Source: a plasmid. From it: a stretch of DNA of 64,000 nucleotides. The notes below the pieces were generated by a model that was not told the origin of the DNA, did not search any database, and worked only from the letters and a program-made list of their open reading frames with translations. The stretch is taken from sequence record NZ_CP028352.1. One strand, 5' to 3'. A program made the translations under genes and the position numbers. Shown here piece by piece: positions 1 through 13,774 of this stretch (positions are counted from its first letter, which is position 1; each line of letters begins with the position of its first letter).

Positions 1-1786
1 ACGAAGCGGCCAGCTGAGTCGGACGTATACGAATATAATGCAGGGTTGACTGTGGGGATGAATGGCCGGACCACTGCATCAGCTCATGTAAAGACATCCC
101 CCCGGCAACACTGGCCAGTGCTGTAACGGCAGAAGCACGGCCGCGGTGGCTGGTAATGGGACCGCGTGAATCTTCCACAGACATACCCGCTCTGGCGCAG
201 AGAAGCGGAATGACAGTGAGATTTATTATGTTTCTTCCCACCGGTTTACCCCGGTTCTGAAACAGATAACGAACTTTTTCACCGGTGCGTTCATCCGTAA
301 ATGCTGCCTGCTCCTGAGGACGCTCACTGAGCCAGATATCGACATATTTTTTCACAACAGACGAGACTGGCTTAACAAAAGCTTTAGACGTTTTGCCGGC
401 TGGTACGCTGAGATAGCACAGAGTACCGGCCGGGACAGGGCTGCTGTTTTCCTGCAGAATGTCATCCACCTGTGGGGTAACGCAGTTCATTGTCAGGCGC
501 AACAGCTCGTTCTGTCGCAGCCCGGCATGCGTCCAGATAACCGCCATAGCCTGAAGCATAGACAGGGGATAATGAATTTCGCTCAGCAAATCTTCCTGAC
601 GCAGGTTCAGACTCGCCCAGACCAGTCTGAGCCAGACCGGATCATCAATAACGCGGGGGCTCACGCCCTGACGAAACAGCGGTGTATCAGGCGTGGACAG
701 ATGGCGGGCCGGACTGAACTTTAATCGCCCCCATCCCCAGCTTTCATAATCAAGCATAAAACGGCGAATGGCATAAACAAACCGGCTGCGGGAATGCGGC
801 ATCAGGGGTTCTCCTGAGCGTTTTGATTGTCTGCCCCCTTTCTTTGTATCCAGTGACAGCTCGTCTACTTTCAGTCTGCCGACCATTGCAATAAAGCTGG
901 CGCAGGTTTCCATTGTCCAGTCAGAGGGCTCGCATATTTCCGGCTTTTCCCGGGCAAGCCACAGGCCACAGCGGAGAATAAAACTGTACTGAGTTTCTCT
1001 GGAGCGGGGGCGGAGTACCGACGTTTCCCGCCACATCCGGCACCACCGCGCCCAGTCAGGTGCGATACCTTGTGTTGGCTTTTCATGCCATTCCTGATAG
1101 TTACGCATTCTCAGGGGGCTCTCTATAATTCCCATAGCAGCAAGCGCACAGGATATTTTCCCCGTAGCTCTTGCGATTCCCCGGTCGTGGCAGTTCTGCC
1201 CCCGCCACAGGAGGTCTGTCGTAAAAGTTCCAAGACGCGGGTCGTTGTTCATCAGCATCAGTACACCCAGCATACCGGACATATTGTGCTTCTGATTCTG
1301 CCCGGCATATCCCATTGAGATCAGAACGTCTGTCAGCCGGTTAATTTCATGACTGACAATACTCCGGCCATATATAGCACTGGCGTACAACGACGGTGCG
1401 CCATGCACTGGCAGGCTGAGCGGAGAAGAAAACGGACCGAGATGAAAGGCAAAAGCAGCAAGCAGGGGCCTGCCGGAACAGTGTTGCTCACAGAGCGTTA
1501 ACCATCTTTCCTGCGTCCACTGCCAGCAGGGCTGACCCGACCGGTGCGTTTCTGCAAGAACGGCAAGGAGGGTAATTCTGGCAAGTCTGACACTGATACT
1601 GCTTCGTGAGGCAATGTCCTGCAGAGGCAGCAGCAAATATGGCAGGGAATCTGGCCGATCGAGCGCAGCAGACCGCCGGTAGCCTGTACGTATCGCGTCT
1701 TTTTCCTCAGGACTCAGCGCATCGCTCAGCTGATAATCTGTGCGTTTGAAAGGTATATAAGTGACTGTGTTTTTTTTTCCACTCAT
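1..1786 (-). CDS. Large tyrosine recombinase (Tn554 TnpB-like); 3' end lies beyond the window start; at least 595 codons open
   Basis: The minus frame from the ATG at 1786-1784 is open to position 1; I scanned every in-frame triplet and found no stop. The translation carries tyrosine-recombinase motifs: HRGRASAVTALASV and LMQWSGHSSPQSTLHYIRIRPTQLA (H-x-x-R, then the catalytic Y). It is absent from the ORF track only because its stop lies outside the window. Confidence 0.7.
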   Translation of the reverse strand, partial: MSGKKNTVTYIPFKRTDYQLSDALSPEEKDAIRTGYRRSAALDRPDSLPYLLLPLQDIASRSSISVRLARITLLAVLAETHRSGQPCWQWTQERWLTLCEQHCSGRPLLAAFAFHLGPFSSPLSLPVHGAPSLYASAIYGRSIVSHEINRLTDVLISMGYAGQNQKHNMSGMLGVLMLMNNDPRLGTFTTDLLWRGQNCHDRGIARATGKISCALAAMGIIESPLRMRNYQEWHEKPTQGIAPDWARWCRMWRETSVLRPRSRETQYSFILRCGLWLAREKPEICEPSDWTMETCASFIAMVGRLKVDELSLDTKKGGRQSKRSGEPLMPHSRSRFVYAIRRFMLDYESWGWGRLKFSPARHLSTPDTPLFRQGVSPRVIDDPVWLRLVWASLNLRQEDLLSEIHYPLSMLQAMAVIWTHAGLRQNELLRLTMNCVTPQVDDILQENSSPVPAGTLCYLSVPAGKTSKAFVKPVSSVVKKYVDIWLSERPQEQAAFTDERTGEKVRYLFQNRGKPVGRNIINLTVIPLLCARAGMSVEDSRGPITSHRGRASAVTALASVAGGMSLHELMQWSGHSSPQSTLHYIRIRPTQLAAS

Positions 1787-2793
1787 CAGTAAGCCCCCGC
1801 CTGAAAAATAAGGCCAGCGATTTTCCTGTCGGTTTCAGCTACGGCTGCGGTTATCCGGCCAGACAGATCGGACCCTGACAGATGGATATAAATCTGTGTG
1901 GTGCGCGGATCTCTGTGTCCAGCATAAGTCGCCAGCTCATGCAGCTTCCAGCCGGCCCGAGCCAGATGGGTCAGGCGAAGATGGCGAAAGGTGTGGGTTG
2001 TAATCTGTGGAAGCCCCGTATCCAGAGCCCATCTGCGCACGGTTTTACTCCAGCTCCACACAGAAAGAAGAGTGCCGTAATTACGATCAGAAAATGAACG
2101 GAACAACGCCCCCTGTGTCCGGCCAGCCCGCTTCAGCTGCCGGAAAAGGTTTGCCAGTACCGGCGTAATGTCCGGACCATAGCACACAACCCTTTCACGC
2201 CGGCTTTTCGTTGTTTCCGGGCGGATACGGATCAGGCGATGAGCAGGGTCGATATCCTCAAGCGTCAGGGCTGTCACCTCTGCACGGCGGAGTGCACCAA
2301 AATAGGCCAGTGCGAGCATCAGCCGGTCCCGCAGGGAAGCAGCTGAAACATGTTTAAGAAATCTCAGCCATTGTTCATTGTCAGGTATTACAGGTAAGCG
2401 GGTGATACGCGGGACAAGCCCCCGCCCGGTATAAATGGCACCCGGTAAACCCGCGCGGGGTAGCGGATTGAGACTGCATATATCCTGATAAACAAGAAAG
2501 TCATACCAGAGACGGATAGCAGACAGGCGCAGCTGGAGCGTGGCACTGGCCGCAGGGTAAGGCATGCCAGGCAGCTGAGGGCGGATGTAGGCGGCGAGGT
2601 CTTCAAACCGGGCTTTTTCAGGTTCAATTCCGTTCTCGCTGCAGAACGAAAAGTAATGATGAAGGGCGCTACGGTAGGCGGTGAGTGTGCCCTGCGCCCG
2701 CCCGAGATCGGATAACAGTTTCAGCCAGCGCTCTGCCAGCAATAGGCTTTGTTCATTCGGTGGGATCAGCATCGTGTTCTCCTCTGACAGCAA
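1786..2793 (-). CDS. Tyrosine recombinase/integrase, 335 aa (XerD/TnpA-like)
   Basis: The C-terminal box HTFRHLRLTHLARAG...YAGHRDPRTTQIYIHL matches the R-H-R-Y catalytic residues. Its TGA stop overlaps the ATG of the downstream recombinase gene by one nt (ATGA). Confidence 0.8.
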   Translation of the reverse strand: MLSEENTMLIPPNEQSLLLAERWLKLLSDLGRAQGTLTAYRSALHHYFSFCSENGIEPEKARFEDLAAYIRPQLPGMPYPAASATLQLRLSAIRLWYDFLVYQDICSLNPLPRAGLPGAIYTGRGLVPRITRLPVIPDNEQWLRFLKHVSAASLRDRLMLALAYFGALRRAEVTALTLEDIDPAHRLIRIRPETTKSRRERVVCYGPDITPVLANLFRQLKRAGRTQGALFRSFSDRNYGTLLSVWSWSKTVRRWALDTGLPQITTHTFRHLRLTHLARAGWKLHELATYAGHRDPRTTQIYIHLSGSDLSGRITAAVAETDRKIAGLIFQAGAY

Positions 2794-2842
2794 TATCGCT
2801 GCTCAAAGTTTACTCACTCAATGTTGCATTCCACTTAACTTA

Positions 2843-3073
2843 CTACAGCTCGTAATTCGAACTGAATACATGCACGCCGTTCTGCCTGAAAAATCGCTCA
2901 TTCTGAAAAAGCGGCGCCGCCATTTTTATCCCCAGGCGCTTTGCTTCCGCCGATCGCGCAATCACGCAGCCGTCATTATTCGAAACGACAACAATTGGTT
3001 TGCCGCGCAGATCGGGCCTGAATACGGTTTCACATGAGGCATAAAAGTTGTTGGCATCGGCCAGCGCAAACAT
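2843..3073 (-). pseudogene. umuC: umuC (Y-family polymerase V catalytic subunit), 5' fragment of 76 codons; truncated by the insertion
   Basis: MFALADANNFYASCETVFRPDLRGKPIVVVSNNDGCVIARSAEAKRLGIKM...FSSNYEL aligns with the UmuC N-terminus and ends where UmuC would continue YADMSN. Confidence 0.8.
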
Positions 3074-3075
3074 TC

Positions 3076-3453
3076 CTATTCTCCTGCCGGTCCGTTGAAT
3101 CCCACTCCAGCTACATCGGTGAGGGCATAGGCAACTACTCCCCATACGGGAAGCATCTGGCTCACATCAAGCAGCGTTACAGTCTCGTCAGCATCCAGCG
3201 CCTGCAGGGCAGGAACCGGATTAAGCAGCAGGCGCCTTAATGTCAGCTCCCCGTCAAGTTCAGCCACGATAAGCTGACCGTGTGCGGGTATCAGCGCGCG
3301 ATCGATGGCCAGTACGGACCCTTTAACAATACCGGCGTCGGGAAAATTACTGTCGCTGCGCATCAGATAGGTCGAGTAAGGGGAAAGATGCACAAGATCA
3401 CCCAGATTAAGGCGCGTTTCAGTGTAGTTCTGGGCCGGACTCTGAAAGGCCAT
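3076..3453 (-). CDS. umuD: UmuD-like S24 peptidase-fold protein, 125 aa; begins at the UmuD' position
   Basis: Aligns with UmuD from residue 25 onward (SDS matches the GDSM serine); the UmuD K97 position is R (ELTLRRLL). It sits 2 nt upstream of the umuC stub. Confidence 0.75.
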   Translation of the reverse strand: MAFQSPAQNYTETRLNLGDLVHLSPYSTYLMRSDSNFPDAGIVKGSVLAIDRALIPAHGQLIVAELDGELTLRRLLLNPVPALQALDADETVTLLDVSQMLPVWGVVAYALTDVAGVGFNGPAGE

Positions 3454-3591
3454 GCAAATACTCCATTCTTTACAGCTTTTCAGCCTTGTAAGGTGAACCA
3501 GATAACGACCAGGTGTCCGTCGCGCGGGCGCATTTAATACTCCTGATATCAGTATACGTCGCTATCCTTACATCAACAGCAGGAGGTAACT

Positions 3592-4272
3592 ATGTGTGGA
3601 AGATTTGCGCAGTACAGCAGCCGCGATGATTATTTTGATGCACTCAGCCTGACACCGGACGAAATCACATTCGATCCGGAACCTCTCGGGCGCTTTAACG
3701 TAGCACCAGGCACTAAAGTACTCCTTCTGAACGAACAGGAAGATTCGCTGCGCCTCGATCCTGTGTACTGGGGCTACGGACCGGAATGGTGGGATAAGCA
3801 GCCACTTATCAACGCGCGCGGTGAGACGGCTGCGAGCGGCCGCATGTTTAAGCCTCTCTGGAATCATGGCCGCGCTATCGTGCCTGCTGACGGCTGGTTC
3901 GAATGGCAGAAAGAAAGTGGTGAGAAGCAGCCATTCTTCATTTTTCACAAAAAGAAGGAGCCTCTTTATTTTGCCGCAATCGGCAGGCAGCCGTACGGGC
4001 AGGATCACGGCAAAGAGGGCTTCGTGATTGTCACCTCAGCCAGCAATCAGGGCATGGTGGATATACATGACAGGCGGCCGCTGGTGATTACGCCTGATGC
4101 CGTTCGTGAGTGGCTCAGCAATGAAACGTCTCCAGCGCGTGCAGAAGAAATTGCTCATGACGCAGCCGTTCCGGAAAAAGCATTTACCTGGCATCCCGTC
4201 AGCAAAAAAGTAGGCAATATACATAACCAGGGAAAAGAACTGATTGAGGCTGTAGTGGACAGTGATGTTTAG
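3592..4272 (+). CDS. SOS-response-associated peptidase (SRAP/YedK/HMCES family, DUF159), 226 aa
   Basis: N-terminal MCGRF puts the Cys2 nucleophile in place; the family is typical in length; a strong SD (AGGAGG) lies 8 nt upstream; it is divergent from umuD. Confidence 0.85.
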   Translation: MCGRFAQYSSRDDYFDALSLTPDEITFDPEPLGRFNVAPGTKVLLLNEQEDSLRLDPVYWGYGPEWWDKQPLINARGETAASGRMFKPLWNHGRAIVPADGWFEWQKESGEKQPFFIFHKKKEPLYFAAIGRQPYGQDHGKEGFVIVTSASNQGMVDIHDRRPLVITPDAVREWLSNETSPARAEEIAHDAAVPEKAFTWHPVSKKVGNIHNQGKELIEAVVDSDV

Positions 4273-5168
4273 TCGAAATGGTTTTCTTCTATACAGTCGT
4301 TCATTGTCCCTTCCAGAACGCGGCCTAAATCCGGAAATCCAGCCTTTAACAGAACAGTCGCAGCCCGTTCAGCCTTAGGGTCGTGCCGGTCTAACCACAC
4401 CACATTCAGTCCTTTGTTTCCGCCCTGGTGATAGTGAAGGTTATCCGGCATTTCTGACAGTCCGAACGGACACCTGTCACGTTCCATTGCATCCATGAAT
4501 GTGGAATAAGCGGCAGAAAAGGGGATCAGAAAGAGGTGCCAGCGATGTCTGAGTAAAGTTACTCCGCGCTTACTGAGGATGTACCTGGACAGCCTGCCCT
4601 TAAGTGGCCAGTTAATTCCGAGCTGCAGTGCGATGTGACGTGCTGCGGACAAATGATGTGAGCCATCATCATTGTTCCAGTAAAGGCCTCTGCCAGTCCA
4701 GGAAAAAGCGCTGAATGTCATATCATCAAGTTTAACTGAGGGATAAGTTATCATTTCTCTCATTCTGGATTCAGTAACCGGCTTGATGTAATCAGGACAG
4801 AACATCTGAGCAAACGCCTCCATGTCTTTTGCGGAAGAAACGTTGTTACTCGATGAACTCATTCCGATCACGTCGGTGAGATTGCATCTGTGGTTTACAA
4901 GCGTTTCTTCCTGAACAAGGCTGCTAACCTCCGCAATAGCCAGCTGGACTTTTTCCATACTTTCGGAAGACTGAAAACGGAAATATTCAATGCAGCCAGT
5001 TTTACCGAAGTTGCTGATATCAAGCCATTCATCCCATCTGACCACTGACGTCAGGCAGGCTGAACGAGGGACGAGCACTAATGGCTGCGGAACAAGTTTT
5101 CCGTTCCAGATGGCCAGCTTTAGTGCGATGGGGCCGAAACCGATCCTCTTGATGATATTCCGTACCAA
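4269..5168 (-). CDS. Hypothetical protein, 299 aa, no recognisable domain
   Basis: Long ORF, convergent with the SRAP gene and overlapping it by 4 nt; its GC is somewhat lower than the neighbours. Confidence 0.45.
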   Translation of the reverse strand: MVRNIIKRIGFGPIALKLAIWNGKLVPQPLVLVPRSACLTSVVRWDEWLDISNFGKTGCIEYFRFQSSESMEKVQLAIAEVSSLVQEETLVNHRCNLTDVIGMSSSSNNVSSAKDMEAFAQMFCPDYIKPVTESRMREMITYPSVKLDDMTFSAFSWTGRGLYWNNDDGSHHLSAARHIALQLGINWPLKGRLSRYILSKRGVTLLRHRWHLFLIPFSAAYSTFMDAMERDRCPFGLSEMPDNLHYHQGGNKGLNVVWLDRHDPKAERAATVLLKAGFPDLGRVLEGTMNDCIEENHFD

Positions 5169-5879
5169 TTTGTAATCTCCGCACAGTTTTTAATGCGCGA
5201 CAGCGCATGAAGGCGCCAGCTGATGTCAGTCAGGGCGAAGTGGCCACATGGCGCCGGTAGCCCGGCGAAGCCGGTTCCGGTTTGATAGGTTCTGCCTAAC
5301 TATACCTTCGCCCTGCTAAGCCAAAACCGCTTTCAGTTGCACAGGAGCTATTTTGCGCTGTCGGAGTGGTCACGACAAGGCGTAGCCGTAGTCGGGGCGT
5401 ATCTCCGCGTTAGCGGGCCGTCAGGGCCGCTTACGTGCGTGTTCTCCTTTCTTACAGCAATACTGCTAACAGCAACTCCGATTCTAATTACAACATCCAT
5501 ACTAAAAGCGACTCCATCCCGGCCTTTGGCCGGGGCGGCGGCGCTTTTCAGGGTGGGTACCACTCGATACCGAGATAAGCACAGCGATTTTGCTTCCACC
5601 TGATTAGTTTGTTGTAACTACGGACAATGCCCGGCGCTTGCGACGGGAGCTATTTCTGACGCGAAGCGTCTTATCCGAACCGGCGCGGACGTTAGTCCGC
5701 AGCAAGGGCGGGCATTATTTATCTGTCCACAGGATGGATGCCGAATAGGTTTTATCTTTAAAGGTAAGTAATAACTGTTGTTTAAAAGAAAGGAGATCGG
5801 GTTTTTAAAAGGATCATCGCGGTTTGTAAAAAAGACGGATAGCGGTTAACACGCAGTCCGGTCAGAAGATAAATCACAT

Positions 5880-6164
5880 ACCCTCTCGCGGTTATTGTGG
5901 ATAACTCAGAATTGCGGATTACGGATCTGCCCGCTGGTAAATTGTGTGCGCTGGCTCTCGTTTCTGAATCAACAGTAAAGCACTGTTGTGATTAATATTT
6001 GTCCATCTGCCGTTGTGTAGGCGTGCTCGGGCCTCCGGCGCGAACCGGATAACGTGAAGGGTGGGCGGAAAGGCATAGGTGCCGGCATCTGAAGCCGGAT
6101 TGCGGGCAGGGGTCATCCGGCGCGGGTACGCCAGCAGTCTAAGAGGGAATGCGTCAGAGACGCA
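5880..6164. other. Putative replication origin (oriR) downstream of repA1; perfect DnaA box TGTGGATAA at 5896-5904
   Basis: A DnaA box (complement TTATCCACA) sits about 260 bp beyond the repA1 stop, as in IncFII oriR. Confidence 0.5.
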
Positions 6165-7031
6165 TCAGGTTGTGACCAGCAGGTCGTCACCGAGTCGCGT
6201 GTAGTGTCCGCGTGAAAGCTTCATGCGCTCCGTGACGCGGCGCTCTATCTCCGTGCGGACTGCATCAAGGCTGCCAAAAAAGTCGCCATTACGAATTTCT
6301 TTCTGCAGCTGCAGTCGTACCAGCTGCTCGATGTCCTTACGGGTGCGCGGTGCGTCTTTGCGTGCACGGTGGCGCTTCATGCCGTGCTCACGCCGTGACT
6401 TCTGATACTCACGGAAGCGCTCACGTACAAATGACCAGGCGGCGCCAATGAGCTCACCGGCGTCAGCGCGCGGTAAGCCCTTCTTTTCACGCTGGCGGTT
6501 TTCCCACTCGATGCGGCTGCGGCGTGCGGCCGCAACGGCTTCCTCGGAGACGTCCAGCACCTGCCACATCAGCGGCGTGAAGGTGATGTCCGTAGGGATA
6601 TTGCAGCCAATTTCTTTATCGTATTCGGTGTTATAGGTGAGGAGCTTCAGCTGGGCCATAAACTGCACGGCACCGGTGAAACGGGTGATCGAGAGGCGTT
6701 TCTTCTCGGTGGCCAGCCCGCAGCGAATACTCATAGTGGTGAGTGAGGCGCCTACGCGATTGGCCAGCGGATTGAAATAATGGCAGAGAGCCTGTAGCGA
6801 GGCTTCCAGTGCACGCATACGCAGTTCCGGAGGACGGCGCTTACGCTCCCCCCGGGCTATAGACATGGCAACCAGTGACTGGAACTCCATGCGCTGGGTG
6901 AAGCCTGCCGCTTTCTCACGGATTTTTTCGCAGAACGGCAGGGTTTTCTTTCCGTTCTCTGGAATAAATTCCGGATTAGGATTCTTTACCTGCCGGTAAA
7001 ATGAGGTGTTTTCAGTAAGTTGCTTATTCAC
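6165..7031 (-). CDS. repA: Replication initiator RepA1 (RepFIIA/RepZ family), GTG start
   Basis: YRQVKNPNP...FCEK..EKAAGFT...PLANRV...CGLATE...LSITR...TYNTEYDKEIGCNIPTDITFT...LDVSEEAVAAARRSR..WEN.QR...AWSFVRERF..YQ...ERRVTERMKLSR is strongly RepA1-like. Confidence 0.85.
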   Translation of the reverse strand: MNKQLTENTSFYRQVKNPNPEFIPENGKKTLPFCEKIREKAAGFTQRMEFQSLVAMSIARGERKRRPPELRMRALEASLQALCHYFNPLANRVGASLTTMSIRCGLATEKKRLSITRFTGAVQFMAQLKLLTYNTEYDKEIGCNIPTDITFTPLMWQVLDVSEEAVAAARRSRIEWENRQREKKGLPRADAGELIGAAWSFVRERFREYQKSRREHGMKRHRARKDAPRTRKDIEQLVRLQLQKEIRNGDFFGSLDAVRTEIERRVTERMKLSRGHYTRLGDDLLVTT

Positions 7032-7330
7032 GCCTTCCTGCGCTTATGTTGCACAGAAGGAGTAAGCACCGAGGGTATTGCAGTTTTTCGGGCATGAAAC
7101 TATACTCCCCGCATAGAGCAACAGCTTCTATGCAGATTCAGTGAGCCCCGTTAGTCTTCTCCGTGTCGCCAAACTCAGGAAGATTATCGGGGTTTTCTTT
7201 TTTCTGGCCTTCACTAATCAGTCAGCACCAGACTTCTGCCACCTTTCGGCGTGGCAAACCAGGAACTTAATTGCGAGCTAATGTATCACCACAGGTTTGC
7301 ACAATCAATTTCCGTGAATAGTCACCTTCA
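7032..7330. promoter_or_regulatory. repA1 control region: expected antisense copA/inc RNA, leader peptide and repA promoters
   Basis: A 300-bp untranslated gap between copB-like and repA1 contains short stem-loops (for example TGCCACC...GGCGTGGCA). The assignment rests on the IncFII/I-complex organisation, not on a mapped RNA. Confidence 0.4.
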
Positions 7331-8319: not shown

Positions 8320-8967
8320 TCAGTTGGTCAGCCATGCGCTGACGCTGAGGTGAGTGGGGTTTTCTGACGTTTCGCCTATAAGCACATCGCCGTATCCGCC
8401 ATCAATTGAGACTGCATAACTGGCGACGTGTCTCGCTATATTCATTGCCGGCAGTATTGCCACCTGCCTGCCGGTGCTGAGCTCAGTAATCCTGAAGTGG
8501 CCATTTCCAGTAACCTTCTCCGGGACATAAACACATGCATCGATGGAGTCGCTCCGATGTGGTACGAGTTGATACCTGATACCCTCAAAGCAGATGCTGC
8601 CGGTGCAAATTTCGTCATCTTCTTCATCCTGCTGCTGCCAGGCACCTGACTCATAGTCCACGGCCCAGGTCCATTCACTCGCATCAATCTGCATGGCCAA
8701 CTGCTCAACGCTGGCTGCTAACATGCCGTAGCTGATCTGCAGTGCCGGACGGATGCTGTATCCTGCACGGACAAATTCAATGCCGATGAATGCTATTTCA
8801 TTACGTTCACTGTCTGTAAGATGGCCACGCACTCTCTGAGCCGCCGAAATAACCATCAGGCGCCCCTCCATGTCAGACAGCGCATGAATGTGTCGCCAGC
8901 CTCTTATGCGCGTAGCATTTTCATTTAATGCCCGACTTATATCGCCGGAACCGAGTTCAGTTGCCAT
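8320..8967 (-). CDS. Hypothetical protein (about 215 aa from MATELGSG)
   Basis: ORF only; acidic central stretch (QQQDEEDDE). Confidence 0.4.
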   Translation of the reverse strand: MATELGSGDISRALNENATRIRGWRHIHALSDMEGRLMVISAAQRVRGHLTDSERNEIAFIGIEFVRAGYSIRPALQISYGMLAASVEQLAMQIDASEWTWAVDYESGAWQQQDEEDDEICTGSICFEGIRYQLVPHRSDSIDACVYVPEKVTGNGHFRITELSTGRQVAILPAMNIARHVASYAVSIDGGYGDVLIGETSENPTHLSVSAWLTN

Positions 8968-9047
8968 TTTCTGTGCCTTACAGGATGGTGCGGCATGGAA
9001 TAAACGCGCGCAGGAGTATTGGGACAAACCCGAACATGAGGTTGTTC

Positions 9048-9081
9048 TGAGAGGGGAAAAAAGAGGGCCCCTAAGGGGCCC
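9048..9081 (-). terminator. Rho-independent terminator after trbC
   Basis: An 8-bp GC stem AGGGCCCC-TAA-GGGGCCCT is followed on the minus strand by a T run (the plus strand reads GAGGGGAAAAAAG). Confidence 0.6.
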
Positions 9082-9178
9082 TTCTAAAATATGCCGACTG
9101 ACATATTTTGTGGGTCGGTTCAGTAAGTACCTTAGCGACTATGTTTTCTGGCATCAGCATGCCCGATTATCTGGCTCT

Positions 9179-11365
9179 CTATGACGCCACCCTCACAGGT
9201 GCCAGGGTCACGTAGTTCTGTGCGGCTTTTTCAATCGCCTCACGACCCGCGCCCATTAGGCGAGGTTCACGCAGGCGCACCTTATAGCCTCTTCCGCGTA
9301 TAGGCAGGCTTTCATTGACCATCCGCCAGAGTACAGCAGAACGGACCGCCGCTGCAGGCGTACGCTTCCAGCTGTACTCACATTCAAGATCAAACTCACA
9401 GACTGCAGCCAGCGCCGGGTCGGTTAGTATCAGATGACAGGTATGCTGCGCGCCTGGTGGCGCGTCCAGTACCTGTAGGATGCGCTGCACCCGCTCGGCA
9501 CGCACGTAACTGCGACGCCAGCGGTAAGGCATGACTGCCAGCAGCCTGGCTTCAGAAGGTGGACTGACCTCCATAAAACGGTTGATGCGCACAGCCTCAT
9601 TCGTGAATTTGTCATTGTCAGAGATATAGAGCGAGCTGCCGCGGACCACCTGGCCCCTGAAAAGAGTAACGTTTTCGCCCTCCTGCAGCGCCTGAACCTC
9701 TTCCACATCGACCTTTTTCTTTTCGCTCACCTGCAAGCGCGGATCATCCCTCAAACCGCTACCGAGGATGCTGCCCTGCTGCACAATGGCGCTCATGTGC
9801 GCACGGTATTCCGTGCCGGCCATCAGCTGCAGGATTTCCAGAGTGTCCTTTGGATCCATAATTTTGCCGGTAATTCGCACACCCATGTTGGCGATCAGCG
9901 TCCATACTGCGTCGCCCGCCGCCGTTTTCAGGCGCTGCACCTCTTGCCCGGCCAGCAACAGGCAGTAGCCCAGCGAGCGGATTTGAGTAGCCAGCTCACC
10001 CACTTTTTCACTGTAGCCGGCGCCCACCTCGTCGATAATCCAGAGCAGCGGAAAGCGGTCCTTGAATTTCCGCACTTTCATATTGTCTTGTGGCCGCCCT
10101 TCGATCTTCTCACCGAGATCCTGACTTAAAATCATGGCCAGCTGAGACTGATAAAGACGGCCCAGAGTACTGCTCTCCGTAGCGGAAAGCTCCAGCGCCG
10201 GTACCAGCACAATCAGGATACGATCGTTATGCACCACGTCCCGGAGGTCGATGTCACCCGCGTCGCGAGCAAACACGTGACCATAGGTGTCGTTGAACAG
10301 GCTTAGCATGCGAGTGTACTGCTGCATCAGGTAGCCGTGCTGGCGGTTCGCCTCGGGATCCCATTCTGATGGCGTGGCCACTTTATCCAGGTCAAAGCCG
10401 GCAAGCGTACTGAGGTAGTTTTCGAGCGCCACACGGATTTCCTCGTGCCACTGTTCCTCAACCGCCTGAACGTAGAGCCCGGCAATTTTTCGCAGCGGCA
10501 GGTGTGCCTGTATCGTGCGCTGCGACATCACCGTGCCTTCACGTCGACTCTTGTAGACCAGCGCTGTCACCAGTGCCTGGTTCATGGAGCGCGCCTTCTC
10601 CTGCCAGTCGCCGCCGCTGCTGCCGGTTTTAGGCAGCATGGAGTCCATCAGGTTGATGGTGTAGGTTTCCTGTGCAATACCGAACACACTGGTGGTATTG
10701 GTCTGCGGTCGCCCCTTCGCGTCTTCAAGTAGCTCCTGCGCACGCGAGCGCCCGCCGGTAATGAAGTTCATCAAGCGCAGGTCGTCTTCACGCCCGAAAC
10801 GGCGGGCCATAGACATCATGGCGAGCGCCACGTCGTTTTGTGCCTTGTGATCAGAAAAAATAACGCCCTTGCCCCAGCACAGTGCGTTGAATACCCAGCC
10901 CAGCAGCGTCTCCGTTTTACCGGCCCCGGTGGTGCCGAACATCAGCACGTGACGCGTAAGGTCGTCCATGGAAAGCCACAGTTCGCGCCCGGCGTCCCTG
11001 CCTCGCAGGTAACCAGCGTACAGTATGCCCGCCGCGCGGCTCGTATGAATGCGCACTGTGGCCACAGGCAGAAAGCCCAGCACCTTCGCCGGCACCTTAC
11101 GATCGGTCGACGGGTCGTCACGGTTCATGTCGGTTGGCATGCGCATTGGCATCTTCCAGCGGCCGGCGGGCATCACGACCAGCGACCAGAACATCAGCAC
11201 CGGTAGGCTCAGCACCAGCGTGGCCGGCCAGATAAAGCCCGCTCCAACGGCAGCCAACATTCCCCAAGCTAGCGTCCCGGTCTCACTCAGCACATCGATA
11301 AGCCATGAGCGGCCTGCGTGCCGGTGGACGCGAGTGCTGTCGAGCACTGAGTTACTGTCCGTCAT
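9179..11365 (-). CDS. trbC: Type IV coupling protein, TrbC/DotL-like, 728 aa
   Basis: N-terminal TM segments, Walker A MFGTTGAGKTE, Walker B LWIIDEVG; size and position match R64 TrbC. Confidence 0.75.
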   Translation of the reverse strand: MTDSNSVLDSTRVHRHAGRSWLIDVLSETGTLAWGMLAAVGAGFIWPATLVLSLPVLMFWSLVVMPAGRWKMPMRMPTDMNRDDPSTDRKVPAKVLGFLPVATVRIHTSRAAGILYAGYLRGRDAGRELWLSMDDLTRHVLMFGTTGAGKTETLLGWVFNALCWGKGVIFSDHKAQNDVALAMMSMARRFGREDDLRLMNFITGGRSRAQELLEDAKGRPQTNTTSVFGIAQETYTINLMDSMLPKTGSSGGDWQEKARSMNQALVTALVYKSRREGTVMSQRTIQAHLPLRKIAGLYVQAVEEQWHEEIRVALENYLSTLAGFDLDKVATPSEWDPEANRQHGYLMQQYTRMLSLFNDTYGHVFARDAGDIDLRDVVHNDRILIVLVPALELSATESSTLGRLYQSQLAMILSQDLGEKIEGRPQDNMKVRKFKDRFPLLWIIDEVGAGYSEKVGELATQIRSLGYCLLLAGQEVQRLKTAAGDAVWTLIANMGVRITGKIMDPKDTLEILQLMAGTEYRAHMSAIVQQGSILGSGLRDDPRLQVSEKKKVDVEEVQALQEGENVTLFRGQVVRGSSLYISDNDKFTNEAVRINRFMEVSPPSEARLLAVMPYRWRRSYVRAERVQRILQVLDAPPGAQHTCHLILTDPALAAVCEFDLECEYSWKRTPAAAVRSAVLWRMVNESLPIRGRGYKVRLREPRLMGAGREAIEKAAQNYVTLAPVRVAS

Positions 11366-12482
11366 GGCTGCCTCCGTTCAAAAACTCAGTGAGCGCCGCC
11401 GGTGAGCTGAGCACGCTCTGCGGCACGTAACGCCCGTCGTCGGAAATCGTCCACGGGGTGCCCGGCAGTCGGTAGGCGTGATACGCAACCTCATTGACGC
11501 CAATAGCGCCGCGGGCAAGTTCAGCGACATTTTCAGCAGGCACGGATGCCGCAGGCGCCTTGCCTGGAACACTGACGCCTGCATCGGCGGAGAAAAGCCG
11601 TTTCCACGCATCGGCCCGCTGAACTTCAGGGAGTGCCATTACCGGCGTCAGCACCTGAAGTGACGATACCCCACCGCGGATGGTGACGGGGAAAATTACC
11701 ACGTTGACGACGTCTGAAGCCGCTTCAAGATGGCGCTCCATGCGCTGACACTCCGGGCAATTTGGGTCAGAAAACACATACACCGTACGTGCGTGACCAG
11801 CCGAAAGGGGGACGGTAAACAGACCGCGTGACGCAGCGTTTCTGAGCTTAGACGGCAGCTCAGCTCGCACATTCAGCGGCAGGTCCCAGCCGTCAGCTGG
11901 CGCAGCGGCTGCTGATTGTTGAGTTTGCTGTTGCGGCGCACCATGGTCGATGTGTTCACCCTTGTCTTGAAGCTGCATCATGGACGGGGCCGCGGGTTCA
12001 GCAGGCGTATTGCGGGCAGGCCCCACTTTTGAGAGGAATTCCTGTCGCGAGTCCACTGTAGTAAGCATTGGGGTGTCATGAGCTGAAAGGAATTTGAAGC
12101 CGGTGATCGGTATTGCAAGCAAAAATCCTGCTGCAATCAAGGCTGCCGCGATATAACTGTACTTCCGCTGCCGCAGGCTGCGCAGGCGCATACTCTCTAC
12201 AGTGGTCATCAGGTCATTAATACAGCGTAGAAGTAATGCTGCATCCTCACCTCGGTAAAGAGGTGTCAGCGCGTCGTGCGCGTTCTGTGCGTAGAGCCCG
12301 TCACTGTGCACCACAAACCACGGCATCTGACGGAGAGAACAAAAGAACAGCATACTAATGCCATTCCCTGTCAGCGATCCCGACTCCGGGCCCCATTTTT
12401 CTTCTGTCTGATAACGTTGGACACTCAGCAAGTCTCCGATAATTTTGGCCACAAACGGGCCTTCTCTGCGAGATAAGTTCAT
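11352..12482 (-). CDS. trbB: Thioredoxin-fold disulfide isomerase TrbB-like, 376 aa
   Basis: CPEC redox motif (VYVFSDPNCPECQRMERHL); position next to trbC as in R64. Confidence 0.65.
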   Translation of the reverse strand: MNLSRREGPFVAKIIGDLLSVQRYQTEEKWGPESGSLTGNGISMLFFCSLRQMPWFVVHSDGLYAQNAHDALTPLYRGEDAALLLRCINDLMTTVESMRLRSLRQRKYSYIAAALIAAGFLLAIPITGFKFLSAHDTPMLTTVDSRQEFLSKVGPARNTPAEPAAPSMMQLQDKGEHIDHGAPQQQTQQSAAAAPADGWDLPLNVRAELPSKLRNAASRGLFTVPLSAGHARTVYVFSDPNCPECQRMERHLEAASDVVNVVIFPVTIRGGVSSLQVLTPVMALPEVQRADAWKRLFSADAGVSVPGKAPAASVPAENVAELARGAIGVNEVAYHAYRLPGTPWTISDDGRYVPQSVLSSPAALTEFLNGGSHDGQ

Positions 12483-12496
12483 ATTGAGATCCTTGT

Positions 12497-13774
12497 TCAG
12501 CGCGCAACGGCGCTTTCAGAAAATTCGTCTTCGCCCGAGCCGGGAAGATAAAGTGCGTCAGGGAACGGAACGTCGCGCTGCGGTTTAGCGCGCTTAGCCC
12601 GCACGTCGCGTGGGTAAACGAGAGCCAGCGTCTCGAGCTCAAGCTGCAGCCCGTCCACGGCCTCGCCAGTCATCAGCGGCGGACGCGGAAGCTTCAGCCG
12701 CGCCGCCATCTGCTCCGCGCGCGCCTGCGCAACAATGCCCGCGCCTTCTACGAATACTTTTGCGGTGTCGGCAGTGTGTAGTCCGTACCACAGAGTGCGA
12801 TCACAGCCCTTAAGCCAGCGGAACCGGGCAGGCGGCAGGCGGAGGTCCCGGCCATAGAGTCCGGCCAGCGCGGATCGGACCGTACCGTGCGTCTCCAGCC
12901 ACTCACTAACGCCGGGGTTTGCCAGCACGCGCGCCACGTGCTTTTCAGCAACCTGCCAGTCGGGCACGCTCCGGAACTCAGGGGGCCGAAACAGACGGCG
13001 GGTCATACACGAACGGTTCAGGTCATCCAGCAGCGTGGTGGCAGCCTTACGGTCATCTGCAAACACTTGCAGGCCAAAGACGGCCAGTAGCGCACGTTCG
13101 TGCGACTGCCACTGATCGGGCATGGTCATCGCCGGGCCAGTCTGCGCATCGAATAAGGCTGTTGCCGCGTCGCGGTCGAGCACCCGGCGCTTAATCAGCC
13201 CGTGCTGCTCCGCAAACTCCTCGGGCTTTAGTGCCCAGGCATTCTCCGGCGTAGTGTCGTTCATCAGGCCATCACCGCGGTGCCCGGACAGAACAGGAAT
13301 AACTGACGGGGCAAAGGTGGCCATCACCCGGGGTAGCGAGTGAATGTCGATCGCGCGCCGGCTGCGAAAGCCCAGCGCAGGGTGACGCGCCAGCGCCCAG
13401 CTGGTCACGGCAACAAACGGCACCATGGGAATAAACAGGATGCCTGCTGTGTGGTTCATGACGTCACGCCATTCGCTGATACCTACTGACTCCGCCCCGT
13501 TACCGGTTGCGGCCAGCAGATTAATGCGTTCTGCGGCGTAACGATGAATGTGCGGGAAGTCAGCAAAGCGCCACATCCAGTAAAGGAACCAGCAGCTCCA
13601 TCGAACAAAGTCTGCAAAAAAGAGCCAGCAAAGCAGGAGCACCACACAACAGGTGACCATCACCATAGCCGGCTCATTACTGCCGGTGGCGTTCGGGTTA
13701 TAGGCTTGCATATGAAAGATTCCGGAAGAGGAGACAGGCTCAGACGACCCGCCAGACTGCAGATAAGAAAACAC
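12497..13774 (-). CDS. trbA: TrbA/DotM-like inner-membrane protein, 425 aa (the true start may be at MQAYNP)
   Basis: N-terminal TM helices; size and order match R64 trbA. Confidence 0.5.
   Translation of the reverse strand: MFSYLQSGGSSEPVSSSGIFHMQAYNPNATGSNEPAMVMVTCCVVLLLCWLFFADFVRWSCWFLYWMWRFADFPHIHRYAAERINLLAATGNGAESVGISEWRDVMNHTAGILFIPMVPFVAVTSWALARHPALGFRSRRAIDIHSLPRVMATFAPSVIPVLSGHRGDGLMNDTTPENAWALKPEEFAEQHGLIKRRVLDRDAATALFDAQTGPAMTMPDQWQSHERALLAVFGLQVFADDRKAATTLLDDLNRSCMTRRLFRPPEFRSVPDWQVAEKHVARVLANPGVSEWLETHGTVRSALAGLYGRDLRLPPARFRWLKGCDRTLWYGLHTADTAKVFVEGAGIVAQARAEQMAARLKLPRPPLMTGEAVDGLQLELETLALVYPRDVRAKRAKPQRDVPFPDALYLPGSGEDEFSESAVAR

Follow-up and report, generated by a model that had tools for sequence, protein, structure and literature searches.

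The umuC locus and its two recombinase genes

The left edge of the window, by which we mean the whole 64-kb stretch of plasmid DNA that was analysed, holds two tyrosine recombinase genes of unequal size, the beginning of a umuC gene, and a umuD-like gene, all of them co-directional (Table 1).

Table 1. Features at the left edge of the window, listed in order of position.
Feature	Coordinates	Strand	Basis or remark
Large tyrosine recombinase, TnpB-like, codons 1-595 of 705	1..1786	minus	Open to window edge; Phage_integrase match
Small tyrosine recombinase, XerC/D- and TnpA-like	1786..2772	minus	328 aa from ATG 2772
Untranslated leader from arm to recombinase start, with GAGGAG ribosome-binding site	2773..2827	minus	Sequence
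Left terminal 11-bp arm TTAAGTGGAAT (gene strand)	2828..2838	minus	Pattern match at 2828
Element-borne hexamer AGTAAG, presumed 6-bp overlap (crossover) region	2839..2844	minus	Constancy across insertions; joined ends in contig L116
umuC 5' fragment, codons 1-76, ending ...FSSNYEL	2846..3073	minus	NCBIfam UmuC, tblastn, reconstruction, empty site
umuD-like S24 peptidase, first gene of the interrupted operon	3076..3453	minus	Pfam S24

An initial sequence-only reading had described the small recombinase as a 335-aa protein encoded at 2793-1786, which is indeed the length of the ORF when counted from a TTG at 2793. While the ORF and its Phage_integrase match (Pfam, E=9.8e-26, with SAM_1 at E=1.7e-7) hold, translation more likely begins at the ATG at 2772, since a GAGGAG Shine-Dalgarno sequence precedes it and relatives are annotated from the same start. 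The leader between this ATG and the arm is conserved among enterobacterial copies, and a promoter scan of positions 1700-3700 returned no sigma-70-like promoter. The TGA of the small gene (1788..1786) and the ATG of the large gene (1786..1784) have a single A in common, i.e., a 1-nt overlap, as the same reading had it. It was also right that the second recombinase ORF is open for 595 codons to the window edge (reaching base 2), and Phage_integrase is matched here too, at aa 402-588 (E=3.2e-10), so that the profile searches it proposed found this family in each protein. Its size estimate of about 600 aa, however, has to be raised to 705 aa, as the visible protein is identical at 594/595 positions to the complete 705-aa protein WP_110412210.

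The H-x-x-R...Y boxes reported for both proteins turned out to be part of full catalytic sets, namely ALRRAE...HTFRH...GH...IYIH in the small recombinase and R424, K465, H547-x-x-R550, H575, and Y584 in the large one, and the catalytic residues of both are invariant in 15-22 homologues. Homologues of the window recombinases include proteins of Pantoea, Erwinia, and P. coronafaciens. For the large protein, AlphaFold gave a mediocre model (pLDDT 69.7, pTM 0.41), whose best PDB match, an integron integrase, reached only E=0.13. The C-terminal Cys/His domain of the large recombinase falls beyond the window.

The umuC fragment runs from its ATG (3073..3071) to codon 76 at 2846, followed by a TAG at 2845..2843, and corresponds to positions 1-76 of the 422-position NCBIfam UmuC model (E=4e-36) and to positions 2-70 of Pfam IMS. 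The 100-aa frame given for this region in the ORF list (3145..2843) is longer only because an in-frame ATG lies upstream. The umuD-like gene has NCBIfam matches of the HumD/UmuD type, both under their cut-offs.

A precise insertion in codon 77 of umuC

We placed the junction at 2845|2844 because similarity to a Kosakonia plasmid, in which this element occupies an unrelated umuC, ends at 2844-2851; base A2844 itself is ambiguous. This puts the break within the Tyr77 codon (TAY) of umuC, as T | AY, and the element's first bases together with host T2845 form an in-frame TAG TAA that ends umuC'. The sequence-only reading, which had the element end at about 2845 and umuC cut after codon 76, was thus accurate. 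The comparison of both junctions with an uninterrupted umuC that it recommended could be made through full copies of the island in other plasmids (10,984-10,994 bp) and through an empty site, and defined the ends and the hexamer. When the element is cut out in silico from AGTAAGTTA... to ...TTCCACATAA, an uninterrupted umuC of 420 or 424 aa is restored, and target bases are neither duplicated nor lost. The empty site is present in a P. vagans plasmid with the same neighbourhood of SRAP, S24-peptidase, and umuC genes (90% nt identity).

The part of the element inside the window differs from the P. agglomerans ZJU23 copy (L001) and from a further copy (L099) by 2 mismatches in 2,844 bp (99.93% identical), while the adjoining flank is 88% identical to the former, about 70% to the latter, and unrelated in Kosakonia. 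Similarly, the full copy of ZJU23 shares 99.88% identity across 10,994 bp with that of Kosakonia cowanii (L100+L003), and the umuC flanks of the two are only 68-78% identical or unalignable. A near-identical element next to flanks that are 12-30% divergent or unrelated points to recent and independent insertions, which agrees with the recent site-specific event first suggested; homologous exchange of whole umuDC segments as the source of the near-identical copies is disfavoured by the divergent flanks. Neither the 3' part of umuC nor the right end was found at any place in the 64 kb of the window, which puts the cargo and the opposite end beyond its left edge, again as had been proposed. We infer both for the window's own copy from copies that are 99.6-99.9% identical over the visible 2,844 bp. 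The closest full copies have a cargo run of DHHA2 pyrophosphatase-USP-eno-gpmA-crcB with a fluoride riboswitch before it, the riboswitch having been found in the cargo of the ZJU23 copy.

Inverted 11-bp arms delimit the island: TTAAGTGGAAT on the recombinase side, which is conserved in 51 loci, and ATTCCACATAA on the opposite side. The arm on the recombinase side lies within an imperfect terminal inverted repeat of 15 bp (2824-2838), and the ends of the ZJU23 copy pair as a 15-nt inverted repeat with 93% complementarity. The left hexamer reads A(G/T)TAAG at every insertion, non-umuC sites included, whereas the right hexamer is that of the local umuC allele (ATGGCG, ACGCGA, ATCACA, and others) or of the local non-umuC target. 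A metagenome contig (L116) contains the joined ends, ATTCCACATAA-AGTAAG-TTAAGTGGAAT, beside a recombinase pair that is 74-77% identical. An attL of the same form is found in the window, in pEB102, in pDC3000A, and in 51 other loci, and attL and attR consensus sequences are conserved across related loci. The positions of the cleavage sites and of the 6-bp overlap, and the roles proposed below for the two proteins, are deduced from the junction sequences.

Bases 1-2844 thus very probably represent the left end, with the recombinase genes, of a non-conjugative island of roughly 11 kb that inserted precisely in codon 77 of umuC. Comparative evidence predicts that the island is mobile, and the plasmid's umuC, a gene for an error-prone polymerase, is inactivated.

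Related islands at the same codon

A umuC fragment ending at codon 76/77 lies just before the small recombinase gene in 51/58 related loci from several phyla, where the 58 are those with at least 400 nt upstream of that gene. Klebsiella, P. aeruginosa, pDC3000A, and pEB102 carry the same recombinase pair at this codon. What follows the large recombinase gene varies, being a VOC gene in the ZJU23 copy, L003, and pEB102, an MFS transporter gene in Klebsiella, and a type III effector gene in pDC3000A. Minimal related elements of 3.4-4.2 kb have two genes only, and one of the smallest (L066, 3.4 kb) extends about 160 nt beyond the large gene.

Members of this family have been described before. [quoted passage not shown] 2015, PMC4458695). 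Like the island in the window, it targets a umuC beside umuD and leaves a small 5' fragment, its genes for 'XerC and XerD' adjoin that fragment, its size is about 11 kb, and its cargo (TDT/Mae1 transporter, DHHA2 pyrophosphatase (PpaC), UspA, Eno, and GpmA) is that of the window's closest full copies. De Maayer et al. read the cargo as energy metabolism and left the ends, the core site, and the Tn554 relationship undefined (PMC4458695). In pEB102 the element measures 10,946 bp and shares the arms and the gene order umuD-umuC'-recombinases with the window. Its recombinase module is only 70-74% identical to the window's at the nucleotide level, yet its CrcB cargo protein is identical; on the former ground we regard the window island as a different variant.

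The second precedent is the T3SE 'integron-like elements' in rulB of Pseudomonas syringae, e.g., in pDC3000A (Jackson et al. 2011, cited by Rhodes et al. 2014, PMC4542609). The pDC3000A locus consists of rulA, an 82-aa rulB', 336-aa and 713-aa recombinases, one effector gene, and the 3' part of rulB, with the same arms and hexamer AGTAAG as in the window. We found a distance of 60 bp from rulB' to the integrase gene, in agreement with the published description (PMC4542609). It differs from the window island in its proteins (about 55% identical, about 65% at the nucleotide level), in its length of 4.2 kb, and in having a single effector as cargo. The published pairs comprise proteins of about 330 aa and about 705-720 aa, to which the window pair (328 and 705 aa) is homologous. 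The window island is therefore the 'umuDC island' of De Maayer et al. and the rulB element of pDC3000A is a member of its family; previous reports place the family in Pantoea, Erwinia, and Pseudomonas, and the window holds a new copy of a known kind.

Comparison with other recombinase systems

The sequence-only reading had recognised the arrangement of tnpA and tnpB of Tn554, and this resemblance is real. The small protein aligns over its full length with the genuine Tn554 TnpA (24.7% identity over 357 aa, E=3e-21 by BLASTP), a resemblance no better than that to generic XerC/XerD models. The large protein matches TnpB by BLASTP (E=5e-7 over 288 aa) and hhalign (probability 48%, E=1.8e-4), and both have the motif C-x7/8-C-P/Q-H-x2-A-C-x2-C after the catalytic tyrosine. 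Like Tn554 of Staphylococcus and Enterococcus, which inserts site- and orientation-specifically into a DNA-repair-related gene without target duplication, the island has a small-then-large recombinase order with a stop/start overlap, and its insertion into a repair-related gene is likewise specific in site and orientation and free of duplication. A true Tn554-family transposon, with tnpC further left and 6 bp carried to the next site, is nevertheless very improbable. TnpC is needed for Tn554 transposition (Bastos and Murphy 1988, as cited in PMC10214605), and the tnpC-like third gene that had been anticipated has no equivalent in any relative: the DUF6262 model matches real TnpC alone, cargo directly follows the large recombinase in every full copy, no conserved third gene was seen in the full copies examined by annotation or sequence, and the 3.4-4.2 kb elements make do with two genes. 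Nor is a Tn554-type 6-bp donor footprint visible across the compared insertions, since the hexamer on the left stays constant and that on the right is always target-like, the Kosakonia allele and non-umuC sites included. Further differences are the 75 or so extra residues at the N-terminus of the large protein, the target (umuC codon 77), and the occurrence of the family in Proteobacteria and other Gram-negative phyla. With neither tnpC nor a 6-bp carry-over, 'Tn554-like arrangement' holds and 'Tn554-family member' does not.

[quoted passage not shown] These, too, are non-conjugative islands driven by recombinases; they favour a small number of targets, their terminal inverted repeats are short and imperfect, and their large proteins likewise end in Cys-rich motifs. 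ILE_FH1 and its relatives interrupt umuC/rulB beside umuD, with USP and SulP among their stress cargo (PMC4542609), and tmexCD-toprJ elements, later classed as SEs, were reported in umuC (PMC8547460; bioRxiv 10.1101/2022.09.22.508988). However, the island has two core genes rather than four, with no tfp-like or srap-like gene, and the 6-bp fingerprint and footprint that are the hallmark of SEs are not seen in the window family. The pGRT1 element, a near-identical counterpart of ILE_FH1 (PMC4542609), has ORFs of 385, 525, and 138 aa and a third recombinase gene that an IS has split (the ILE_FH1 version encodes 535 aa); its proteins have no significant BLASTP match to either window recombinase, the best being E=0.012 over 31 aa around the catalytic tyrosine. 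The sites differ as well: ILE_FH1 inserts at the GAT of S-N-S-D-G-C (S-N-x-D-G-C), codon 42 of pWW0 rulB, to which pWW0 position 6488 maps, as opposed to codon 77. The literature lumps the T3SE ILEs with such unrelated three-integrase ILEs under 'integron-like', despite T3SE ILEs having nothing integron-like (attC, IntI).

The pair could alternatively be a plasmid multimer resolution system of the XerC/XerD type, or a decayed remnant of one, beside a umuC cut by an unrelated deletion. XerC and XerD are the top NCBIfam matches of the small protein (E about 1e-27), and, as at dif and related sites (cer, psi, pdif, IMEX elements), two different recombinases, the small one Xer-like, go with an 11-6-11 core layout. 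The E. coli dif site is GGTGCGCATAA-TGTATA-TTATGTTAAAT, and the island arms agree with its half-sites at 7/11 and 9/11 positions. The genes were also labelled 'XerC and XerD' in the earlier description (PMC4458695). Against this, the scores fall far under the family cut-offs (96.5 bits vs 335 for XerC, 92.9 bits vs 330 for XerD), and umuC is split rather than deleted, being restored exactly on removal of the 11-kb segment, near-identical versions of which sit in unrelated umuC alleles. Both ORFs are open with all catalytic residues intact, the recombinases are element-encoded, one of them a 705-aa TnpB-like protein, and insertion is into a coding sequence rather than dif. We consider this very unlikely.

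A recombinase in trio (RIT), set aside already in the sequence-only reading, needs three adjacent recombinases of similar size (315-410 aa) as opposed to two of 328 and 705 aa, and an integron is discounted by the score with the integron integrase model TIGR02249 (55.8 bits, cut-off 265).

A possible mechanism and its context

For the island in codon 77, we envisage a dif-like core site of 28 bp, made when the ends are joined and composed of 11-bp arm, 6-bp overlap, and 11-bp arm. The two recombinases, the small one Xer/TnpA-like and the large one TnpB-like, would act on it as a hetero-oligomer in which each exchanges one strand pair, like XerC/XerD. This core site would recombine with ...GCTNT|AYGGCG|AYATGAGC in umuC. 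As the 6-bp overlap of the target (AYGGCG) differs from that of the element (AGTAAG), the reaction would have to tolerate heterology.

More tentatively, and with slightly more doubt than confidence, we suggest that the pair defines a distinct and widespread class of two-gene integrative elements, TnpA/TnpB-like and TnpC-independent, which would be the first Tn554 relatives outside Firmicutes. Such elements would encode their own heteromeric recombinase for a dif-like 11-6-11 core (overlap AGTAAG vs target AYGGCG), be strictly directed to one umuC codon, which would let a transfer-deficient island ride conjugative plasmids and ICEs (integrative conjugative elements), and enlarge through tandem accretion at their own termini. 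The literature searched names individual members ('umuDC island', 'T3SE ILE'); such a class, its core site, and a Tn554 link were not found in it.

The recombinase genes are always oriented as umuD-umuC' and begin 50-70 nt past the element-supplied stop codons, which, together with the lack of a recognisable promoter of their own, makes read-through from the umuDC promoter the probable source of their transcripts. SOS-driven read-through is unsupported in the window, given that no LexA box (CTG-N10-CAG) was found between umuD and the divergent SRAP gene and that the umuD-like gene scores under the NCBIfam cut-offs.

Since umuDC operons are common on plasmids and ICEs, targeting a conserved codon in them would give an island of this kind, itself transfer-deficient, access to conjugative vehicles. 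The backbone in the window has an IncFII RepA, a CopA RNA, and MPF_I transfer genes, and from its gene content the host plasmid of the island is classed as a conjugative plasmid of the Pantoea IncFII-RepA type.

The interrupted umuC and its recombinase genes

The leftmost 2844 bases of the window are the recombinase-bearing end of an island from a known umuC-targeting family. The sequence-only reading had described two tyrosine recombinase genes and a umuC reading frame cut after codon 76; open reading frames, Pfam and NCBIfam all confirm this, and the finding is real and was read essentially correctly. Pfam recognises a phage-integrase catalytic domain in both recombinases; in the umuC fragment its Y-family polymerase (IMS) domain is matched at positions 2-70 only, and the NCBIfam UmuC model is matched at positions 1-76. 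The gene order of that reading also stands, with the ATG of the large gene and the TGA of the small gene having one base in common, but the sizes had to be revised: the small protein, given as 335 aa, is probably 328 aa long, and the large one, described as open for at least 595 codons, is 705 aa in full (594 of the 595 visible residues are identical to WP_110412210). The host is a Pantoea-type IncFII-RepA/MPF_I conjugative plasmid, and the IncFII-type RepA gene and CopA-like RNA together (6165-7201) confirm that the window is plasmid DNA.

Features around the interrupted umuC (window positions)
Feature	Position	Strand	Remarks
CopA-like antisense RNA	7113-7201		RF00042, 69 bits
IncFII-type RepA gene	7031..6165	minus	
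SRAP (YedK-like) gene	3592-4272		divergent from umuD-like gene
umuD-like S24 peptidase gene	3453..3076	minus	
umuC 5' fragment (...FSSNYEL)	ATG 3073 to 2846	minus	exactly 76 codons, then TAG TAA
Element hexamer AGTAAG	2844..2839	umuC strand	
Element left arm TTAAGTGGAAT	2838..2828	umuC strand	
Leader between umuC' stops and small recombinase gene		minus	71 nt
Small tyrosine recombinase gene	TTG 2793 to TGA 1788..1786	minus	open from TTG 2793; likely start ATG 2772 behind GAGGAG
Second (large) recombinase gene	ATG 1786..1784 to window edge	minus	open 595 codons

Full copies, an empty site and a recent insertion

A megablast search of plasmids with window bases 1-6000 returned plasmids of Pantoea and Kosakonia that carry this DNA. 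In the copies of P. agglomerans ZJU23 (L001), P. vagans pPant4 (L099) and Kosakonia cowanii Pa82 (L100 and L003), nine more genes lie beyond the recombinase pair, in the order VOC, crcB, gpmA, eno, universal stress protein, DHHA2 pyrophosphatase, UDG-family protein, TDT transporter and YncE, and after them stands the 3' part of umuC. The Kosakonia (10,994 bp) and ZJU23 (10,984 bp) elements are 99.88% identical to each other, and their flanking umuC sequences share 68-78% identity or cannot be aligned. When these elements are removed in silico, from AGTAAGTTA... to ...TTCCACATAA, an uninterrupted umuC of 424 or 420 aa is restored. An empty site, ..AACTACGAGCTAT^ACGGCGACATA.. (^ marks the junction here and below), is found in another P. 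vagans plasmid (L101), which has the same SRAP/S24-peptidase/umuC neighbourhood, 90% identical to the window flank, with umuC intact.

Window bases 1-2844 differ from the ZJU23 and pPant4 copies at 2 positions and match the Kosakonia copy with 99.58% identity, whereas identity to ZJU23 drops to 88% in the flank (2845-4272). The window's umuC fragment shares about 70% identity with the pPant4 one and is unrelated to the Kosakonia one. An old, inherited insertion might be read from the 96% identity over 1-4232, but this figure splits into 99.93% for the element and 88% for the flank, and we rejected that reading. We likewise rejected the idea that the P. agglomerans CFBP8774 plasmid (L096), which is the closest backbone plasmid (96.5% identical over window 6000-30000, flank 92% identical), carries the same element, as its family member is a different one, 75.8% identical and with redox cargo. 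The presence of one near-identical element in at least four umuC alleles, together with a related flank that is empty and another that holds a different relative, points to recent, repeated, site-specific insertion. For this plasmid, the difference in identity between element and flank and the empty site bear out the earlier proposal, and on these sequence comparisons we regard its insertion into umuC as recent and site-specific.

The CFBP8774 member (L096 5643-15494) lies in a related umuC allele and carries redox/thiol-stress genes (OsmC, glutathione reductase, thioredoxins, DsbA, CMD, TetR); its right arm was not found within 16 kb beyond the recombinase genes. Window segment 3730-4841 is missing from CFBP8774. 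Adjoining the SRAP gene is a gene for a DUF6685 protein (299 aa, E=5.9e-39, window 4269-5168, minus strand).

Element ends and likely core site

On the umuC strand the window reads ..AAT TAC GAG CTG T ^ AGTAAG TTAAGTGGAAT GCAACAT.. (junction between 2845 and 2844), and the other end, seen in the full copies, reads ..TTGC ATTCCACATAA ^ AT GGC GAT ATG AGC.. In this plasmid the right end, expected to lie left of the window, would read ...TTGCATTCCACATAA; AYGGCGAYATGAGC and roughly 340 umuC codons would come after it. Insertion falls between the T and the AY of the Tyr77 codon, with one base ambiguous and no target bases duplicated or lost, and the first bases of the element change TAY to TAG, followed by TAA, so that the truncated protein ends at once. 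The two element ends form a 15-nt imperfect inverted repeat. Chance pairs reach that length in 11 kb too, and what gives the repeat weight is that it is terminal and conserved.

If joined, the ends would read ATTCCACATAA-AGTAAG-TTAAGTGGAAT, a dif-like 11-6-11 layout. E. coli dif is GGTGCGCATAA-TGTATA-TTATGTTAAAT, and the arms match its half-sites at 7/11 and 9/11 positions. In the umuC target, ..GCTNT-AYGGCG-AYATGAGC.., the right half (half-site ATATGAGC) resembles the arm at 6/11 positions, and the 6-bp centre has only its first and last base in common with AGTAAG.

Scanning metagenome contigs for two arms separated by 6 nt returned 30 matches, seven of them beside small-plus-large recombinase pairs; many of the 30 have no recombinase genes nearby, and some (L103, L118) look like DnaA-box-like repeat clusters. 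One match (L116 8096-8123, in the 121-kb contig Ga0265780_10000131) reads exactly ..CGTCC ATTCCACATAA AGTAAG TTAAGTGGAAT GCAACAT.., i.e., the right end and the left end of family elements joined through AGTAAG, which confirms the hexamer as part of the element's core. The recombinases after this junction are 77% and 74% identical to the window's pair; amino-acid metabolism genes lie on one side, and the recombinase pair with P-type ATPase, MerR and ArsR genes on the other. The simplest reading of this arrangement is two elements in tandem, an array probably formed by accretion, and it suggests that such arrays grow when one element integrates at the end of another, where the overlap is identical.

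By analogy with XerC/XerD, the two proteins would act as a hetero-oligomer in which the large one gives target recognition. Since the target centre is unlike AGTAAG, the reaction would either tolerate heterology or exchange one strand pair and then rely on replication. An AlphaFold2 model of the large recombinase (22 homologues; mean pLDDT 69.7, pTM 0.41) has a confident all-alpha N-terminal domain (approximately aa 10-220); its catalytic part is modelled poorly. A Foldseek search with this model retrieved no PDB structure below E=0.1, the best being the VchIntIA integron integrase (E=0.13).

Probable expression from the umuDC side

In all copies the recombinase genes are co-directional with umuD-umuC', the element provides the stop codons, these are followed by a short leader, and a promoter scan of window 1700-3700 was negative. 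Together these points agree with the proposal of earlier authors that the genes are expressed by read-through from the promoter of umuDC. No canonical LexA box (CTG-N10-CAG) is present in 3454-3591, before the umuD-like gene, so SOS control is unsupported in this window; we infer read-through from an SOS promoter from what has been published for other copies. Between the umuD-like and SRAP genes, the 138-bp spacer contains a 10-bp palindrome, CTGATATCAG (3543-3552), which may be an operator for another regulator.

Relationship to Tn554 and other recombinase elements

The review section of PMC10214605 sets out five groups: ICE/IME, SE (intA-tfp-intB-srap), GInt (ginABCD), RIT (recombinase in trio, three similar recombinases) and Tn554 (tnpA, tnpB, tnpC). 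For comparison, genuine Tn554 was taken from an Enterococcus plasmid, in which a TnpA query sequence matched at 99.7%. The small protein aligns end to end with Tn554 TnpA (24.7% identity, E=3e-21), and the large protein matches TnpB along 288 residues (E=5e-7; E=1.8e-4 and 48% probability in a profile comparison). The TnpB alignment extends beyond the catalytic tyrosine into a common C-terminal motif, C-x8-C-P-H-x2-A-C-x2-C in Tn554 TnpB and C-x7-C-Q-H-x2-A-C-x2-C in this copy; most homologues have P where this copy has Q, and most motif residues are invariant in 22 homologues.

Nevertheless, no tnpC was found: the next gene is always cargo, minimal elements leave no room for it, and DUF6262 was matched only in real TnpC. 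In contrast to Tn554 relatives and SEs, for which a 6-bp carry-over is reported, no carry-over of 6 bp from donor to new site is visible in the island family; the left-arm hexamer is constant, and the right-arm hexamer is always that of the local umuC allele (ATGGCG, ACGCGA, ATCACA...) or of the local non-umuC target. The Tn554 tnpA/tnpB-like label of the sequence-only reading therefore holds for homology and layout and fails for family membership, and these comparisons argue for a Tn554-like element that is not a member of the Tn554 family. The link to TnpA/TnpB without TnpC bears on how the Tn554, SE and GInt groups relate. A tblastn search of the plasmid collection with Tn554 TnpA (E<=1e-20) matched 404 plasmids (among them Bacillus 110, Rhodococcus 39, Streptomyces 25, Mycobacterium 15 and Providencia 13), far past Staphylococcus and Enterococcus, so the host range of TnpA-like proteins is much wider than published for Tn554.

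SE/GInt membership was rejected because of the lack of BLASTP similarity and a different umuC site. ILE_FH1/pGRT1, with ORFs of 385, 525, 535 and 138 aa, has no BLASTP similarity to the window's pair, and the ILE_FH1 site, the GAT of S-N-S-D-G-C, maps to codon 42 of pWW0 rulB (L009). Record NC_015855 was used in place of HM626202. The three-integrase ILEs (pGRT1; L097 10706-22567) are experimentally mobile and insert at codon 42, in contrast to codon 77 here. The gene umuC/rulB thus has at least two separate hot spots, at codons 42 and 77, for unrelated recombinase elements. The insertion "after position 37" in ICEPanBD442 (PMC4458695) may be of the codon-42 type.

Breadth of the family

Full-length homologues of the large protein (45-91% identity) occur in Pantoea, Erwinia, Salmonella, Serratia, Providencia, Klebsiella, P. 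aeruginosa, the P. syringae group, Methylomonas and a Falsirhodobacter. A scan of one genome per species gave 80 loci and added Sphingomonas, Novosphingobium, Acidobacteria, Gemmatimonadetes, Phycisphaerae and Rhodothermales. Upstream sequence was long enough at 58 loci, and at 51 of these the small recombinase gene is immediately preceded by a umuC fragment that stops at codon 76/77. The consensus is ..AAY TAY NNN CTN T ^ A(G/T)TAAG TTAnnTGGAAT.. at the left junction and ..ATTCCACATAA ^ AY GGC GAY ATG.. at the right. Elements range from 3.4 to 12.5 kb (median 4.9 kb), the smallest consisting of the two recombinase genes only. The few exceptions that lie elsewhere than in umuC keep the junction form (T ^ AGTAAG-arm ... 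arm ^ A, then local sequence). For instance, a 4,655-bp member in Pseudomonas coronafaciens (L010-L012, approximately 8905-13559) interrupts a prophage portal gene; its arms and hexamer are unchanged, and its cargo is a YopJ/HopZ-family (PF03421) effector gene.

In Methylomonas, Methylobacter and related loci (L068, L070, L071, L073, L087, L088), a complete umuC follows the large recombinase gene within the element; the island there seems to bring a replacement for the interrupted gene.

Published islands and cargo

Islands of this umuC-targeting kind are already known in the literature. De Maayer et al. (PMC4458695) describe one, nearly identical across genera, in which "XerC and XerD" adjoin a small 5' umuC fragment and the cargo comprises a Mae1-type transporter, GpmA, Eno, PpaC and UspA. 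The pEB102 copy (10,946 bp) has the gene order and arms of the umuC island, a CrcB protein identical to that of ZJU23, and recombinase module DNA 70-74% identical to the window's. Plasmid pDC3000A carries rulA, an 82-aa rulB', 336-aa and 713-aa recombinases, a single type III effector gene and the 3' part of rulB, and its arms and hexamer are those of the window. Its 60-bp spacing agrees with the value that Rhodes et al. 2014 (PMC4542609), citing Jackson et al. 2011, report for "complete T3SE integron-like elements".

Our literature searches retrieved no paper defining the two-gene family as such, and no description of its ends, core site, breadth or Tn554 relationship. An island in umuC is unsurprising to a mobile-element specialist, which makes the case of modest interest; the under-described two-gene class behind the island is the part that deserves follow-up. 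Exact ends, an insertion point and a likely core site are now given for an island family that is frequent on the plasmids and ICEs of Proteobacteria, both plant-associated and clinical (including Pantoea, Erwinia, Klebsiella IncFIB/HI1B plasmids, P. aeruginosa, P. syringae effector carriers), and such defined ends make these islands easy to annotate and their mobility directly testable.

A fluoride riboswitch (RF01734, 50.2 bits, E=1.3e-11) was detected within the cargo of the ZJU23 full copy, outside the window (L001 7063-7132, plus strand), directly upstream of the DHHA2 pyrophosphatase-USP-enolase-phosphoglycerate mutase-crcB run. Given this position, the island's main cargo looks like a fluoride-resistance operon rather than the published "energy metabolism". 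For this plasmid, the outcome is just an inactivated umuC and the probable gain of a stress or fluoride-resistance island.

A large clinical Klebsiella pneumoniae IncFIB/IncHI1B plasmid (NZ_CP154605; L004 801-11585) has a family member in its umuC, with recombinases 76.9% identical at the nucleotide level; on the cargo side, the pair is accompanied by MFS, USP, SulP and arsenic-resistance genes.
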